From assembly GCF_041886205.1 (NCBI RefSeq), contig NZ_CP169029.1: a DNA stretch of 64,000 nucleotides; one strand, 5' to 3'. Origin of the DNA: Escherichia coli (GTDB lineage: Bacteria; Pseudomonadota; Gammaproteobacteria; Enterobacterales; Enterobacteriaceae). Below the pieces are notes generated by a model. It made no database searches. It was not told the origin of the DNA and worked only from the letters and a program-made list of their open reading frames with translations. The translations under genes were made by a program, and so were the position numbers. This document shows, piece after piece, positions 6,468 through 40,415 of the stretch; position 1 is the stretch's first letter; each line of letters starts with the position of its first letter.

Positions 6468-7955
6468 TTAAATCACCTCTTCGATAACCCACACGCTGAC
6501 GCTGCCGCCGTTGCAAAAGAAGGTTGCTTCGCCGTTTTCGTCGGTCACTACGCTCTCTTGCCGGTTCCCCAGAAAATCACGCCAGGTTTTATTGCCGTAA
6601 TTCTCTCCCAGATGAATGGTTTTTTCGCCATCATCCCCGTTCGACATGACCACCACGCAGCCGGGATATTCGTCAGTGCCACTGCGGCTAAAGGCAATGC
6701 AGTTCGGATGGTCGAAAAATAACGTCTGTACACCGTGGGCGAAACGCTGACGAGCGAGAATTAACTCATCAAGCTGTTCGATTATTGGCATATCTATCGG
6801 ATAGGTTTGCCCGTCACCACCGACATCTTCGTAATGCGCACCGTAGAGGTCCGGATAGAATACCGAAGGAACGCCATTTTCCCGCAACAAAATTAAGGCA
6901 TACGCCAGCGGTTTAAACCACGGTTCGACTGGCGCTTCGAGGGCTTGCAACGGTTGGGTGTCATGGTTGGCAACGAGGGTTACGGCGTGAAAAGGATCGG
7001 CTTCCACCAGCGTCCCAGTGAAAATCTGCGTCATGTCGTAGTCGCGTCCCATGCGCGATGCTTCATGGAATTTCATCTGCAGCGGCGCATCAAACAGCAT
7101 GGTTTTGCCTTCCACCTGATCAATATACGTTTGCAGTTTATCGACTTCATGCGACCAGTATTCCGCCACAATAAACAGCGGCTTTGGCGCAACTTCTTGT
7201 ACGTGTTCGATCCACTCTTTATAAAACCACGCCGGTATATGTTTGACCGCATCAAGACGAAAACCGTCGCATTGTGTTTGTTCCATCACCCAGCGCGCCC
7301 AGTATTTAATCTCTTCCGTCACGGCATGATTGCGGAAATCGATATTCTCGCCCATCAGATAATCGAAATTACCTAACTCATCATCAACCTGATCGTTCCA
7401 GCCTTCGCCGGTGTAGTCGTTAACAATTTTAAATATGCCATCTTCATCAGGATTTTCGATATGGTCGATACCGCTAAAACATTTGAAATCCCAGATAAAC
7501 TGCGAGTATTGCCCGGCACGAGCGGGGAAGGTGTAACGCGTCCAGCCTTCGCACTCAATGATTTCTTCGTCAATTTGCGTACGGTCATCAGCATTTACAC
7601 GCTGCACGCGAATAGCTTCTTTTTCATCCGCGCCCATTTTGTGGTTGACTACCACATCCAACAGCACCGCAATGTCATTACGTTTCAGAGCGTCAATGGC
7701 GGCCAGCAGTTGTGCTTTATCGCCATATTTAGTAGGGATGCTGCCTTTCTGATCAAACTCGCCTAAATCAAATAAATCATAGGAGTCGTAGCCGACCGAA
7801 TACCCGCCCGATGCGCCTTTATAGGCGGGCGGCAACCAGACCATATTGATACCAATATCATTAAAACCGTCGGCGCGCTCGGCCAGTTCAGGCCAGAGCT
7901 TACCGCCTTCCGGGTAATACCAGTGAAAACATTGTAACAGCGTGGGATTACGCAT
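6468..7955 (-). CDS. amyA: cytoplasmic alpha-amylase
   Basis: 495-aa ORF with glycoside hydrolase family 13 motifs ([14 protein letters not shown]); synteny beside fliT. Confidence 0.93.
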
Positions 7956-8032
7956 TCTTCGACTCCATTCAAGGGGAACATTAGAAGCGTAGCCGTAATC
8001 AGATTATTCGCGAGCCATTAGCTCGTTAAGAT

Positions 8033-8398
8033 TCACGAGAAGTTATCTTGCGGAGCCAGCACAAAGCCGCCCTGATCGCCATAGGCACTTAACACCGATT
8101 TTTGCACCGATGACTGACCGACCAGTTTCGCCAGTTCATTCATCCGAATCTGTAATAACTGCTTTACCTTGCTTTCGTTATCGAGAATCAGGCGCAGCAT
8201 CGGGCGGAGCTGCTCCTGCATCGTGGTGGACGGGTCAATCTCATCAGTCAGATGTGCAATCTCCTGCACCGCATTCACATACGCCATTTCGCTGGCGATG
8301 AGTTCGTCCCATTGTTCTTCCGTTGCCAGGCGTAACATGAGCTGGCTTTTTTCGACGAGTTGTTGCCAGGCGAAATACAAATGCGGTGCGTGGTTCAT
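8033..8398 (-). CDS. fliT: flagellar export chaperone FliT
   Basis: 121-aa ORF, last gene of fliDST; 1-nt overlap with fliS. Confidence 0.92.
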
Positions 8399-8808
8399 CA
8401 GACTGGGTCCTGAATCAAAGAAGGGGAGAGTAATGACTCTTTCCAGGCATCGGCAATATTGCGCATTAATGCTTCCACTTCTTCGACTGCGGAGACATCG
8501 TTGCGTAAATTGGCTTGCAGCAAACGCCTGACCATATAGCTATAAAGAGCAATCAAGTTTTGGGTTAGTTCGTCTTTGCTCTCTTCATCAAGACTCACCC
8601 GCAGTCCGTTCTCAATGATGTTGATCGCTTTTGACAAAGAGACGCCTTTGCCTTGCTGATTGTTGTCCTGCATAAACAGGCGCGCTCTAACCAGTGCGCT
8701 TAGCACTCCATCAAATAGCATGGTGACCAGCTGCTGCTGGCTGGCGCTCATTACGGCGCTTTCGACGCCAATTTGTGCATAGGCCTGGGTGCCTTTTGCC
8801 GCGTACAT
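8398..8808 (-). CDS. fliS: flagellin-specific export chaperone FliS
   Basis: 136-aa ORF recognised as FliS. Confidence 0.93.
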
Positions 8809-8823
8809 AGTATCTCCTGAAGA

Positions 8824-10239
8824 TTATTTCGAGTTGCTATTTGAGGTGTCGAACTGCTGTGTCAGATAGCTACTGGTGGAGTTAAGCGAGTTCATTAACA
8901 CATCTAATTGGGTGAACTGGGCTTTATAGCGCGTCATTAAGGTATCGATACGCTCACTGGCTGCGTTGTACTGGTCGGTCAAATTATTCAGCGTTTTGCT
9001 GACGCCATCTTTTGCGGCCTGGATTATCCCGGTGGAAGAGAGCCAACTGGTCAGGTTGCTACTAATGCCGGTGGTTACCCCTGTACTTTTACCGTCACCT
9101 ATAAACATTTCACCGATGCCAGTGGCATCTTTTTTTAGCGCCGTTTGCAGTTTGTCGGTCGCGATTTCCAGCTTGCCGGTACTGGCATCGCTGGTAACGC
9201 CAATCTGTGCCAGCGTTTTATAGTTTGAACTGCTGTGAGTATTGGCGAGCAAGGTTTTAAGCTGAGTCTGGATGGTACGCAGTGTGGAGTCACCGAGTAA
9301 TGCGCCATTACTGGAGTCCTGACTTTCTGCTCCGGCATCGACAGCGGTGTATTTGGTTAAGCTACTGAATGTATCCTGCAATGTGTTATAGGCATCCACC
9401 CATGCTTTGACCGCATTTTCAGCTTTGGATGTGTCTTTATTGATGGTCAGTGTCTGATTACCGGTGGTGACGTCATTCAGGTTGAGTGTGATATCTTCCA
9501 GCGCGTCGCTGATAGTGTTACTGCTGTTTTCAATCTCAACGTTATTGACTGTCAGTTTGGCGTTTTGCGCGGTGACGCTTTCAATCATGCCATTGCTGCT
9601 ATCACCCGACGTTCCGTTGTAACCCATAAAACTTTCCAGGGCGCTGTCGCCGCTGACGCTAAGTTTCATAGCGTTATCGTTGCCCGTATCGTTAGCGGTG
9701 ATGGACAGACGATATTCGCCGTTTCCCACATTGATGATACTGGCGCTGACACCAGCTTTGGCGTTGTTAATGGCATCGCGAATGCCGGAAAGTGACGAGT
9801 TAGCTGCGCTGATATCAATCGTGACCGGATCTTTACCGCCGCCTTGCTGGATGGTCAGTACGCTATCGCTGGTGGCGATGGCAGCTTTACTGTCTTTTTG
9901 ACTAATTTTTGTGGTCAGCGTTTGTGCCTGCGCCAGTTGGCTAACGCTAATGGTGTATTTCCCGGCAATCGCGCTGCCCGTGGTGGTGGCGCTGAAAGCC
10001 GATGAACTGCTGGTGGTTGAAGTGGCGGTAAATAAATCGGCTTTATTCAGTGCAGTGTTGGCTGTCTGGAAACTCTCTAGTGCACTTTTCAGCGTCCCGT
10101 AGGCGCTCAGTTTCGCGGTGTAAGAGCTTTGCTGTTTTGATATCGGCGTCAGGGTAGATTTTTCTGCCGCCTCCAGACTGTCAAGGATGCTGCTTAAGTC
10201 CAGCCCCGACCCAACCCCAAGCGTTGAAATACTAGCCAT
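8824..10239 (-). CDS. fliD: flagellar filament capping protein FliD
   Basis: 471-aa ORF recognised as FliD; sigma28 promoter upstream. Confidence 0.93.
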   Translation of the reverse strand: MASISTLGVGSGLDLSSILDSLEAAEKSTLTPISKQQSSYTAKLSAYGTLKSALESFQTANTALNKADLFTATSTTSSSSAFSATTTGSAIAGKYTISVSQLAQAQTLTTKISQKDSKAAIATSDSVLTIQQGGGKDPVTIDISAANSSLSGIRDAINNAKAGVSASIINVGNGEYRLSITANDTGNDNAMKLSVSGDSALESFMGYNGTSGDSSNGMIESVTAQNAKLTVNNVEIENSSNTISDALEDITLNLNDVTTGNQTLTINKDTSKAENAVKAWVDAYNTLQDTFSSLTKYTAVDAGAESQDSSNGALLGDSTLRTIQTQLKTLLANTHSSSNYKTLAQIGVTSDASTGKLEIATDKLQTALKKDATGIGEMFIGDGKSTGVTTGISSNLTSWLSSTGIIQAAKDGVSKTLNNLTDQYNAASERIDTLMTRYKAQFTQLDVLMNSLNSTSSYLTQQFDTSNSNSK

Positions 10240-10281
10240 ATAAATTCCTTAATCATGCGACGTATAGAACGAATACCGGGG

Positions 10282-10308
10282 TTATCGGCGTAAGCGGGGC
10301 AAAGTTTA
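10282..10308 (-). promoter_or_regulatory. sigma28 promoter of fliDST
   Basis: Minus strand reads TAAACTTT (10308-10301), 11-bp spacer, GCCGATAA (10289-10282); about 45 bp upstream of the fliD start. Confidence 0.7.
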
Positions 10309-10381
10309 CGATTTATTTTTTGGCTTAATGACACGAACAGCAACGAGGAAGGGGAGTATTTCGACCGCTAGAAAAAAATTC

Positions 10382-10408
10382 TAAAGGTTGTGAGTGACCA
10401 GACGATAA
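10382..10408 (+). promoter_or_regulatory. sigma28 promoter of fliC
   Basis: TAAAGGTT (10382-10389), 11-bp spacer, GACGATAA (10401-10408); about 75 bp upstream of the fliC ATG. Confidence 0.75.
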
Positions 10409-10484
10409 CAGGGTTGACGGCGACGAAGCCGAAGGGTGGAAGCCCAATACTTAAACCGTAGACTTGAAAACAGGAAAATGAATC

Positions 10485-11807
10485 ATGGCACAAGTCATTA
10501 ATACCAACAGCCTCTCGCTGATCACTCAGAACAACATCAACAAAAACCAGTCTGCGCTGTCGACTTCTATCGAGCGCCTCTCTTCTGGTCTGCGCATTAA
10601 CAGCGCTAAAGATGACGCTGCGGGCCAGGCGATTGCTAACCGCTTCACTTCTAACATCAAAGGTCTGACTCAGGCCGCACGTAACGCCAACGACGGTATC
10701 TCTCTGGCGCAGACCACTGAAGGCGCACTGTCTGAAATCAACAACAACTTGCAGCGTGTTCGTGAACTGACCGTTCAGGCCACTACCGGTACTAACTCTG
10801 ATTCTGACCTGTCTTCAATCCAGGACGAAATCAAATCCCGTCTCGATGAAATTGACCGCGTATCCGGTCAGACTCAGTTCAACGGCGTGAACGTACTGGC
10901 AAAAGATAACACCATGAAGATTCAGGTTGGTGCGAACGATGGTCAGACTATATCCATCGACCTGCAAAAAATCGACTCTTCTACTCTTGGTTTGAACGGT
11001 TTCTCCGTTTCTAAAAATGCTCTCGAAACTAGCGAAGCGATCACTCAGTTGCCGAACGGTGAGAATGCCCCAATCGCTGTGAAGATGGATGCGTCTGTTC
11101 TGACCGATCTTAACATTACTGATGCTTCTGCTGTTTCGCTGCACAACGTAACTAAAGGTGGTGTCGCAACGTCTACTTATGTTGTTCAGTATGGCGATAA
11201 GAGCTATGCAGCATCTGTTGATGCGGGAGGTACAGTAAAACTGAATAAAGCCGACGTAACATATAACGACGCAGCAAATGGTGTTAAGAATGCCACCCAG
11301 ATTGGTAGTCTGGTTCAGGTTGGTGCTGATGCAAACAATGATGCAGTTGGTTTTGTTACCGTGCAGGGGAAAAACTATGTTGCTAATGACTCATTAGTCA
11401 ATGCTAATGGCGCTGCTGGCGCTGAAGCAACTAGAGTTACAATTGATGGTGATGGTACTAACCAGGCTAAAATTGAACTTAGCCAAAATGGTGATACTGC
11501 TGCAACATCAGAGTTCGCTGGTGCTTCAACCAACGATCCACTGACTCTGCTGGACAAAGCTATCGCATCTGTTGATAAATTCCGTTCTTCTTTGGGGGCG
11601 GTACAGAACCGTCTGAGCTCCGCTGTAACCAACCTGAACAACACCACCACCAACCTGTCTGAAGCGCAGTCCCGTATTCAGGACGCCGACTATGCGACCG
11701 AAGTGTCCAACATGTCGAAAGCGCAGATTATCCAGCAGGCAGGTAACTCCGTGCTGTCCAAAGCTAACCAGGTACCGCAGCAGGTTCTGTCTCTGCTGCA
11801 GGGTTAA
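10485..11807 (+). CDS. fliC: flagellin FliC (non-K-12 allele, 440 aa)
   Basis: Conserved flagellin N terminus (MAQVINTNSLSLITQNNINKNQSALS...) and C terminus (...QVPQQVLSLLQG) with a divergent central domain. Confidence 0.95.
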   Translation: MAQVINTNSLSLITQNNINKNQSALSTSIERLSSGLRINSAKDDAAGQAIANRFTSNIKGLTQAARNANDGISLAQTTEGALSEINNNLQRVRELTVQATTGTNSDSDLSSIQDEIKSRLDEIDRVSGQTQFNGVNVLAKDNTMKIQVGANDGQTISIDLQKIDSSTLGLNGFSVSKNALETSEAITQLPNGENAPIAVKMDASVLTDLNITDASAVSLHNVTKGGVATSTYVVQYGDKSYAASVDAGGTVKLNKADVTYNDAANGVKNATQIGSLVQVGADANNDAVGFVTVQGKNYVANDSLVNANGAAGAEATRVTIDGDGTNQAKIELSQNGDTAATSEFAGASTNDPLTLLDKAIASVDKFRSSLGAVQNRLSSAVTNLNNTTTNLSEAQSRIQDADYATEVSNMSKAQIIQQAGNSVLSKANQVPQQVLSLLQG

Positions 11808-11850
11808 TCGTCGTAACCTGATTAACTGAGACTGACGGCAACGCCAAATT

Positions 11851-11950
<100 letters not shown>

Positions 11951-11980
11951 ACATCAAGCGCAATTTGTCAGCAACGTGCT

Positions 11981-12006
11981 CCCCCGCCACCGGCGGGGTT
12001 TTTTCT
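11981..12006 (+). terminator. rho-independent terminator of fliC
   Basis: CCCCGCC-ACC-GGCGGGG hairpin followed by T6. Confidence 0.65.
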
Positions 12007-12103
12007 GTCCGCAATTTACCGGTAACCCCCAAATAACCCCTCATTTCACCCACTAATCGTCCGATTAAAAACCCTGCAGAAACGGATAATCATGCCGATA
12101 ACT

Positions 12104-12111
12104 CATATAAC
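12104..12111 (+). promoter_or_regulatory. sigma28 -10-like element (GCCGATAA) just upstream of fliA
   Basis: Exact GCCGATAA 16 bp before the fliA GTG; no good TAAAGTTT -35 at the canonical spacing, so promoter status is uncertain. Confidence 0.3.
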
Positions 12112-12126
12112 GCAGGGCTGTTTATC

Positions 12127-12846
12127 GTGAATTCACTCTATACCGCTGAAGGTGTAATGGATAAACACTCGCTGTGGCAGCGTTATGTCCCGCTGGTGCG
12201 TCACGAAGCATTGCGCCTGCAGGTTCGACTGCCCGCGAGCGTGGAACTTGACGATCTGCTACAGGCGGGCGGCATTGGGTTACTTAATGCCGTCGAACGC
12301 TATGACGCCCTACAAGGAACGGCATTTACAACTTACGCAGTGCAGCGTATCCGTGGCGCTATGTTGGATGAACTTCGCAGCCGTGACTGGGTGCCGCGCA
12401 GCGTGCGACGCAACGCGCGTGAAGTGGCACAGGCAATAGGGCAACTGGAGCAGGAACTTGGCCGCAACGCCACGGAAACTGAGGTAGCGGAACGTTTAGG
12501 GATCGATATTGCCGATTATCGCCAAATGTTGCTCGACACCAATAACAGCCAGCTCTTCTCCTACGATGAGTGGCGCGAAGAGCACGGCGATAGCATCGAA
12601 CTGGTTACTGATGATCATCAGCGAGAAAACCCGCTACAACAACTGCTGGACAGTAATCTGCGTCAGCGGGTGATGGAAGCCATCGAAACGTTGCCGGAGC
12701 GCGAAAAACTGGTATTAACCCTCTATTACCAGGAAGAGCTGAATCTCAAAGAGATTGGCGCGGTGCTGGAGGTCGGGGAATCGCGGGTCAGTCAGTTACA
12801 CAGCCAGGCTATTAAACGGTTACGCACTAAACTGGGTAAGTTATAA
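12127..12846 (+). CDS. fliA: RNA polymerase sigma factor sigma28 FliA
   Basis: 239-aa ORF with GTG start recognised as FliA. Confidence 0.95.
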   Translation: MNSLYTAEGVMDKHSLWQRYVPLVRHEALRLQVRLPASVELDDLLQAGGIGLLNAVERYDALQGTAFTTYAVQRIRGAMLDELRSRDWVPRSVRRNAREVAQAIGQLEQELGRNATETEVAERLGIDIADYRQMLLDTNNSQLFSYDEWREEHGDSIELVTDDHQRENPLQQLLDSNLRQRVMEAIETLPEREKLVLTLYYQEELNLKEIGAVLEVGESRVSQLHSQAIKRLRTKLGKL

Positions 12847-12891
12847 CGTCAGTAAATGCCGCACTTTAACTTTGACTACCAGGAGTTCTTA

Positions 12892-13443
12892 ATGATGGTG
12901 CAGCACCTGAAAAGACGGCCATTAAGCCGCTATCTTAAAGACTTTAAACACAGCCAGACCCATTGCGCGCATTGCCGTAAATTACTCGATCGCATTACCT
13001 TAGTTCGCGACGGCAAAATAGTGAATAAAATCGAGATTTCCCGCCTGGACACGCTGCTTGATGAAAATGGCTGGCAAACGGAACAAAAATCATGGGCGGC
13101 ATTGTGCCGATTTTGCGGTGATTTACATTGCAAAACGCAGAGTGATTTTTTCGATATTATCGGCTTTAAGCAATTTCTTTTTGAGCAAACTGAAATGAGC
13201 CCTGGTACGGTGCGTGAATATGTCGTTCGTCTGCGCCGTTTGGGGAATCATCTACATGAGCAAAATATTTCCCTCGATCAGCTGCAGGACGGTTTCCTTG
13301 ATGAAATCCTCGCCCCGTGGCTGCCCACCACCAGCACCAACAATTACCGCATCGCATTACGGAAGTATCAACACTATCAGCGTCAAACGTGTACCGGACT
13401 TGTGCAGAAATCCTCCAGCCTGCCTGCTTCTGATATATATTAA
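12892..13443 (+). CDS. fliZ: regulator FliZ
   Basis: ORF 12856-13443; start moved to ATG at 12892 (MMVQHLKRRPLSRYL...) giving 183 aa. Confidence 0.9.
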   Translation: MMVQHLKRRPLSRYLKDFKHSQTHCAHCRKLLDRITLVRDGKIVNKIEISRLDTLLDENGWQTEQKSWAALCRFCGDLHCKTQSDFFDIIGFKQFLFEQTEMSPGTVREYVVRLRRLGNHLHEQNISLDQLQDGFLDEILAPWLPTTSTNNYRIALRKYQHYQRQTCTGLVQKSSSLPASDIY

Positions 13444-13530
13444 ATAAGAATAAGATGTAGCGGAGTTGTTTTTGTGTTTACAAACAATGGCTCTACACTG
13501 CAAACAGACATAACAACATTCGGGGTGAAT

Positions 13531-15422
<1,892 letters not shown>

Positions 15423-15436
15423 CTCCGGAAACGCTC

Positions 15437-16105
15437 ATGCAAGAAAGTATACAACTGGTTATTGATTCCTTGCCGTTCCTGCTGAAAGGGGCTGGGTATA
15501 CGCTGCAACTCAGTATCGGCGGCATGTTTTTTGGCTTATTACTCGGGTTTATTCTCGCGCTGATGCGCCTGTCGCCAATCTGGCCCGTGCGCTGGCTGGC
15601 GCGTTTTTATATCTCTATTTTTCGTGGTACGCCGCTCATCGCACAACTGTTTATGATCTATTACGGCCTGCCGCAGTTTGGCATCGAATTAGATCCCATT
15701 CCGTCAGCAATGATTGGTCTGTCGCTGAACACTGCCGCCTATGCCGCCGAAACACTGCGCGCCGCCATTTCTTCTATTGATAAAGGTCAGTGGGAAGCGG
15801 CAGCCAGTATTGGTATGACGCCGTGGCAGACCATGCGTCGCGCGATTTTGCCACAGGCGGCGCGTGTGGCGTTGCCGCCGCTGTCGAACAGCTTTATCAG
15901 CCTGGTAAAAGATACGTCGCTGGCCGCGACAATCCAGGTGCCGGAGCTGTTCCGTCAGGCACAGTTGATTACCTCGCGTACGCTGGAGGTGTTCACCATG
16001 TATCTGGCGGCTTCGCTCATCTACTGGATCATGGCGACTGTGTTATCGACGTTGCAGAACCATTTTGAGAATCAACTTAATCGCCAGGAGAGAGAACCAA
16101 AATGA
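15437..16105 (+). CDS. tcyL: cystine ABC transporter permease TcyL (YecS)
   Basis: 222-aa polar amino-acid ABC permease; 4-nt overlap with tcyN. Confidence 0.92.
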   Translation: MQESIQLVIDSLPFLLKGAGYTLQLSIGGMFFGLLLGFILALMRLSPIWPVRWLARFYISIFRGTPLIAQLFMIYYGLPQFGIELDPIPSAMIGLSLNTAAYAAETLRAAISSIDKGQWEAAASIGMTPWQTMRRAILPQAARVALPPLSNSFISLVKDTSLAATIQVPELFRQAQLITSRTLEVFTMYLAASLIYWIMATVLSTLQNHFENQLNRQEREPK

Positions 16106-35293: not shown

Positions 35294-35872
35294 ATGAGTG
35301 AAAAAAGCATTGTTCAGGAAGCGCGGGATATTCAGCTGGCAATGGAATTGATCACCCTGGGCGCTCGTTTGCAGATGCTGGAAAGCGAAACACAGTTAAG
35401 TCGCGGACGCCTGATAAAACTTTATAAAGAACTGCGCGGAAGCCCACCGCCGAAAGGCATGCTGCCATTCTCAACCGACTGGTTTATGACCTGGGAACAA
35501 AACGTTCATGCTTCGATGTTCTGTAATGCATGGCAGTTTTTACTGAAAACCGGTTTGTGTAATGGCGTCGATGCGGTGATCAAAGCCTACCGTTTATACC
35601 TTGAACAGTGCCCACAAGCAGAAGAAGGACCACTGCTGGCATTAACCCGTGCCTGGACATTGGTGCGGTTTGTTGAAAGTGGATTACTGCAACTTTCCAG
35701 CTGCAACTGCTGCGGCGGCAATTTTATTACCCACGCTCACCAGCCTGTTGGCAGCTTTGCCTGCAGCTTATGTCAACCGCCATCCCGGGCAGTAAAAAGA
35801 CGTAAACTTTCCCAGAATCCTGCCGATATTATCCCACAACTGCTGGATGAACAGAGAGTACAGGCTGTTTAA
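35294..35872 (+). CDS. flhC: flagellar master regulator subunit FlhC
   Basis: 192-aa ORF with C-terminal zinc-binding cysteine cluster. Confidence 0.95.
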
Positions 35873-40388: not shown

Positions 40389-40415
40389 TAAAGTTTCCCC
40401 CCTTCTTGCCGATAA
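40389..40415 (+). promoter_or_regulatory. sigma28 (FliA) class 3 promoter of tar-tap-cheRBYZ
   Basis: Exact consensus TAAAGTTT-N11-GCCGATAA. Confidence 0.8.

Follow-up and report, generated by a model that had tools for sequence, protein, structure and literature searches.

A fliC gene of very probable H29 genotype encodes a 440-residue flagellin in a non-K-12 Escherichia coli

The conserved ends of flagellin form the core of the flagellar filament and carry the surfaces for export, for FliS binding and for recognition by TLR5, and the variable centre of the protein is exposed on the filament, where it constitutes the H antigen. In E. coli epidemiology, strains are designated by their O:H serotype, of which the H type is one half. 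Both the extreme diversity of the central domain and the passage of fliC alleles from one lineage to another are well documented, and the gene family is thoroughly known. H29, the type with which this report is concerned, has been reported with several O groups, e.g., as O157:H29 and O26:H29, and H29 strains are listed, with no primers, in a paper on Iranian STEC. It is absent from a fliC PCR-RFLP paper and from the flagellin paper of Hu & Reeves.

We analyzed a stretch of E. coli DNA of 64,000 nucleotides (the 64-kb window), in which the gene at positions 10485 to 11807 had been predicted to be a non-K-12 allele of fliC, and its product was compared with described flagellins. The 443-residue H29 flagellin Q842C0 shows 99% protein identity to it and has the same H29 oligonucleotide targets, locus, termini and central domain, but carries A, T, A and A where the window protein has E193, K268, E314 and D336. 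The nearest different H type found is H38, represented by the flagellin of GF4-3 (1344 bp, 447 aa), with an overall protein identity of 81%. The termini of the H38 allele are 96% identical in DNA, and its centre, a homologue of comparable size (180 aa), has 49% protein identity to the window centre and a similarity that was undetected at the DNA level. The FliC of K-12 (H48) has the locus, the promoter, the 3′ UTR and the D0/D1 termini (93% identity) in common with the window protein. However, the K-12 centre is 58 residues longer and 23% identical, and the adjoining fliD of K-12 also differs (80% amino acid identity). The FliC and FljB proteins of Salmonella Typhimurium (1UCU, 9IWQ and 6JY0) share the D0/D1 architecture, whereas their D2 and D3 domains together are larger than the outer domain of the window protein.

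The fliC gene, its conserved ends and its variable centre

The open reading frame at 10485..11807 on the plus strand is initiated by ATG and encodes 440 amino acids followed by a stop codon, with neither frameshifts nor internal stops. In a Pfam search with the 440-aa protein, Flagellin_N (PF00669) matched residues 5–143 (E = 9.6e-47, 159 bits against a cut-off of 26.6), and Flagellin_C (PF00700) matched residues 354–438 (E = 9.5e-32, 109.6 bits against a cut-off of 23). The presence of both flagellin domains excludes a chance reading frame, and the original prediction that this gene encodes a flagellin was thus borne out. The gene is flanked by fliT, fliS and fliD, which are on the minus strand, and by fliA, fliZ, tcyJ and dcyD, which are on the plus strand, and the order fliT-fliS-fliD / fliC-fliA-fliZ-tcyJ is that of the canonical E. 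coli fliC locus. At the corresponding position in wlxctx60 and 6EVA, WP_000079772.1 is annotated in RefSeq as "FliC/FljB family flagellin", which agrees with the assignment of the reading frame as fliC. A tblastn search of the 64-kb window with the 440-aa protein detected no second flagellin, and fliC was the sole match. Both by its domains and by its locus with a sigma-28 promoter, the protein is a member of the FliC/FljB family.

For the nucleotide comparison, positions 7111–15916 of the window were aligned to the K-12 region. The identity to K-12 was only 21–43%, with many gaps, at approximately 10982–11521, while elsewhere in fliC it was 80–91% on the 5′ side and 83–95% on the 3′ side. This drop lies where the variable region had been predicted (roughly 11000–11540). 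At the protein level, the conserved N-terminal part, which contains the D0/D1 helices and the first part of the beta-hairpin region (residues 1–175; 10485..11009, plus strand), is identical to K-12 at 162 of 175 positions. The conserved C-terminal part, with the D1/D0 helices and Flagellin_C (residues 349–440; 11529..11804, plus strand), is identical at 86 of 92, and the description of both ends as conserved and typical of flagellin was therefore correct. Between them lies the central variable domain, which defines the H antigen (residues 176–348; 11010..11528, plus strand) and in which 54 of 235 aligned positions (23%) are identical to the K-12 centre. The fliC gene of K-12 MG1655 is 1497 bp long and encodes 498 amino acids, so that the predicted shortfall of 58 residues is exact. 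Because the centre has 173 residues against 231 in K-12, the whole of this length difference is central.

The centre had also been described as rich in Thr, Ala, Asn and Gly. These four residues make up 46% of it, as compared with 35% and 32% of the two termini. The direction of the claim is thus right, but the enrichment is only modest, and the description omitted valine, which is the second commonest residue in the centre (A, 16.8%; V, 11.0%; N, 9.8%; G, 9.8%; T, 9.2%).

In a sequence search of the PDB, the best matches of the full protein were flagellar filaments of E. coli and Salmonella, with E values down to 1e-136, and for the central domain by itself this search yielded nothing significant. 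An AlphaFold2 model was obtained from an alignment of 11 sequences, with a moderate mean pLDDT of 70.7. The model contains long D0/D1 helices, including those at residues 9–33, 41–100 and 106–129, and a beta-rich outer domain at residues 180–300 with a pLDDT of 80–88; residues 309–339 were poorly modelled. The top Foldseek match was 9IWQ, a Salmonella FliC without D3 (E = 6e-29, 51% identity over the aligned columns). This match is consistent with one compact outer domain instead of D2 plus D3. When homologues of the central domain were sought, only six fragments were retrieved, none of them a full-length relative, and a related central domain was carried by no more than 23 cluster representatives in a set of 1.84 billion proteins. 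One of the proteins matched, P0035 (775 amino acids), showed the H29 centre at seven separate places, and it may be a flagellin-like protein whose outer domain is repeated in tandem.

Residues 1–175 and 349–440 would fold into the D0/D1 helices of the filament core, and these conserved ends would also bear the export and FliS-chaperone signals and the surface recognized by TLR5. The beta-rich centre of 173 residues would lie on the filament surface and confer the H29 serological specificity. We infer the assembly, the surface exposure of the centre, the expression and the motility from established flagellin biology, from which we saw no sign of departure in the H29 fliC sequence. Filament formation and motility are predicted from the 93% identity of the D0/D1 termini to K-12 FliC and from the E. 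coli filaments at the top of the PDB matches.

Transcription signals and the divergent fliD-fliC block

A search of the 64-kb window with the sigma-28 consensus yielded five sites, as compared with 0.58 expected by chance. The class 3 FliA (sigma-28) promoter of fliC, TAAAGGTT-N11-GACGATAA, was located at 10382..10408 on the plus strand with two mismatches to the consensus, and the sigma-28 promoter of the divergent fliDST operon at 10282..10308 on the minus strand with one mismatch. Both sites are conserved with K-12. A perfect consensus, TAAAGTTT-N11-GCCGATAA, lies just upstream of tar (40389–40415, plus strand), and a site with two mismatches is found upstream of motA, within the 3′ end of flhC (35803–35829, plus strand). 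The tar and motA operons are presumably transcribed from these two sites.

The 3′ UTR of fliC (11808..12004, plus strand), as delimited by a terminator scan and by comparison with K-12, contains REP-type repeats and an intrinsic terminator, which the scan placed at a GC-rich stem (11982–11998) followed by a T run to 12004. This UTR is 98% identical to the K-12 interval annotated as the sRNA FliX. The REP-type palindromes, at 11850–11955, gave only sub-threshold matches in Rfam (naRNA4 and ES036), and the repeats produce a spurious open reading frame of 66 amino acids at 11856–12056. Transcription of fliC would start from the FliA class 3 promoter, which lies 77 nt before the ATG, and would stop at the intrinsic terminator, approximately 175 nt past the stop codon. 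In the matching region of wlxctx60, fliA, flhDC, motAB, cheAW, tar, tap, cheRBYZ, flhBAE and fliE-H are annotated with no pseudogene flags. The promoter, the 3′ UTR with its terminator and the regulon annotated as complete in wlxctx60 suggest that fliC would be expressed in the manner usual for a class 3 flagellar gene.

The divergence from K-12 spans from ~8800 to ~11670 and includes all of fliD and the fliD-fliC intergenic region. The filament cap gene fliD (8824..10239, minus strand) is a divergent allele, encoding 471 amino acids against 468 in K-12, with 80% identity in amino acids and 69–79% in nucleotides. The intergenic region is 61–83% identical to K-12, with a 19-bp gap near 10372. 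The flanks of this region, on the other hand, are close to K-12, with 93–99% identity in fliS and fliT, and 93–100% in the last ~135 bp of fliC and rightward. Therefore, the variable unit is a block of ~2.9 kb and not fliC alone, and since all of fliD is inside the block, the cap and filament genes differ from K-12 together. The divergent fliD travels with the H29 fliC.

Outside the fliD-fliC block, the window is ~98% identical to K-12. In contrast, wlxctx60 (AP045833.1), from the faeces of a Japanese black bear, is 100% identical over 1–25000, and shows 13 differences over 25001–64000. 6EVA, a human isolate from Singapore, shows four mismatches in the 13.3 kb around fliC. This near-identity makes the strain of the window a very close relative of both, and its predicted non-K-12 nature holds.

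H type and subtype of the allele

To assign the H type, which the original prediction had left open, references were taken from the literature, i.e., gene sizes from PMC8591213 and oligonucleotides from PMC11529414. The reference fliC sizes for 53 H types do not include 1323 bp, the length of the window gene, and the nearest are those of H25 and H29 (1332 bp), H38 and H52 (1344 bp), and H5 and H56 (1311 bp); the gene of the H29 type strain (AY250012) is 1332 bp long (PMC8591213 Table S3). The primer pairs for all 53 H types, each with its probe (PMC11529414 Table S8-5), were run in silico against fliC. Among the 53 primer pairs, exact matches were obtained only for H29-F and H29-R, and the H29 probe matched exactly as well. 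The resulting in-silico H29 amplicon is 181 bp long (11183..11363, plus strand), with H29-F at 11183 on the plus strand, the probe target at 11252, and H29-R ending at 11363 on the minus strand. The runner-up pair, that of H56, had three mismatches and its target is in the conserved N-terminus, and each of the remaining pairs had at least 10 mismatches. As controls, K-12 fliC was typed as H48 (0/0/0 mismatches) and the 1344-bp allele of GF4-3 as H38 (0/0/0), and the 1329–1332-bp alleles of CUVM53, TB06052 and H9Ecoli matched the H29 oligonucleotides 0/0/0. By these published oligonucleotides the allele was assigned to H29. The intact non-K-12 E. coli flagellin gene is thus very probably of the H29 genotype, in a 440-residue subtype. 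The H29 call is based on one oligonucleotide set, on the gene length and on 99% identity to the probable reference allele.

H25, for which the reference is also 1332 bp, was rejected on 5, 6 and 15 mismatches to its MeltArray primers and probe. The Beutin H25 oligonucleotides were likewise mismatched in the window gene, as compared by eye. H38 and H52, both of 1344 bp, were also rejected on oligonucleotide mismatches. The H38 oligonucleotides have 4–12 mismatches each in the window gene and are exact in GF4-3, and the next-best BLAST matches were 1344-bp alleles that were typed as H38.

Full-length matches to the gene were found in seven of 5,426 complete E. coli genomes. Four of the seven (2017.17.03CC, 6EVA, Z1324SEC0014 and wlxctx60) carry a 100% identical fliC, and the other three carry genes of 1329–1332 bp that are 97.7–98.9% identical over the full length. 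With the central 519 bp, a sensitive blastn search detected the same seven of the 5,426 genomes and essentially nothing elsewhere, and the identity of the central DNA to the 1329–1332-bp relatives was 96–98%. The window gene is 98.6–98.9% identical to the 1332-bp alleles, one of which, that of TB06052, encodes the 443-aa protein Q842C0 of UniProt. From the gene length, which equals that of AY250012, we infer that Q842C0 is the product of the H29 reference (type-strain) allele. When four H29 alleles were aligned, the window gene showed a 9-bp (3-codon) in-frame deletion at 11457/11458 (plus strand) relative to the 443-aa alleles, with T325 here and SLGA there. This deletion and the approximately four substitutions against the 443-aa form are all within the exposed centre. 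In 2017.17.03CC (NZ_AP027829.1), a second place matched the flagellin query and may be an additional flagellin locus.

The 440-aa subtype is an already known allele. The exact protein is Q6VMT9 in UniProt (WP_000079772.1) and occurs on at least 260 contigs; in the protein collection, the 440-aa form is on 260 contigs, the 443-aa form on 129 and the 442-aa form on 81. It is found in 484 index blocks, where the locations are listed without serotype labels. The allele is thus well represented in public data. When the serotype of the allele-carrying strains was sought in the literature by strain name, only a paper on tet(X4) was found, which gives no serotype. Since the 440-aa form has been sequenced more often than the others, it could carry a selective or epidemiological meaning, e.g., escape from anti-H29 antibodies, if the subtype is distinct. 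That this form is an antigenically distinguishable H29 subtype is, in our judgment, unlikely.

The termini at 93% identity to K-12 FliC and the 3′ UTR at 98% would fit a flagellin of the K-12 type (H48), or one that differs from it only trivially, but we give no credence to this reading, which the centre contradicts. A match of the centre to H48, which the original prediction had named as the result that would overturn it, was not found: the centre is 58 residues shorter (173 against 231) and 23% identical, K-12-like central DNA was not detected in the window, and each of the H48 oligonucleotides, which have no mismatch in K-12, has 7–14 mismatches here. Another reading is a separate or new H type that shares only the short oligonucleotide targets with H29, either as a recombinant mosaic or as a subtype that has lost H29 reactivity through the 3-residue deletion. 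None of the 53 reference sizes is 1323 bp, the 9-bp deletion and the four substitutions are all in the exposed centre, and several allelic subtypes are known in other H types, e.g., H25 and H28 (PMC4441469). Against this, the identity of 97.7–98.9% to the 1329–1332-bp alleles extends over the full length without a mosaic break, and the central DNA is 96–98% identical, which is far above the 92% tolerated within H28 (PMC4441469). We consider a separate H type highly improbable.

The fliC gene, although H29 in sequence, could be silent in this strain, or it could be displaced as the expressed flagellin by a second flagellin locus in another part of the genome (flkA, fllA or flmA, with a repressor). 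The view of 64 kb covers only a part of the genome, and the H29 genome 2017.17.03CC has a second flagellin-like place. However, only one flagellin match was obtained in wlxctx60, the closest genome, a second flagellin is absent from the 64-kb window, and the primers for the non-fliC flagellin types had no exact match anywhere in it. In addition, fliC has its promoter, and both fliA and flhDC are there and carry an annotation as intact genes. A silent fliC is therefore quite improbable, and an expressed gene of the H29 genotype remains the preferred reading.

As an H29 gene, fliC neither opens nor tests an unresolved biological question, and its practical use is as a strain marker and for serotype inference. 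Because H29 is uncommon, being found in 7 of 5,426 complete genomes, the allele sharply narrows the identity of a strain that carries it.
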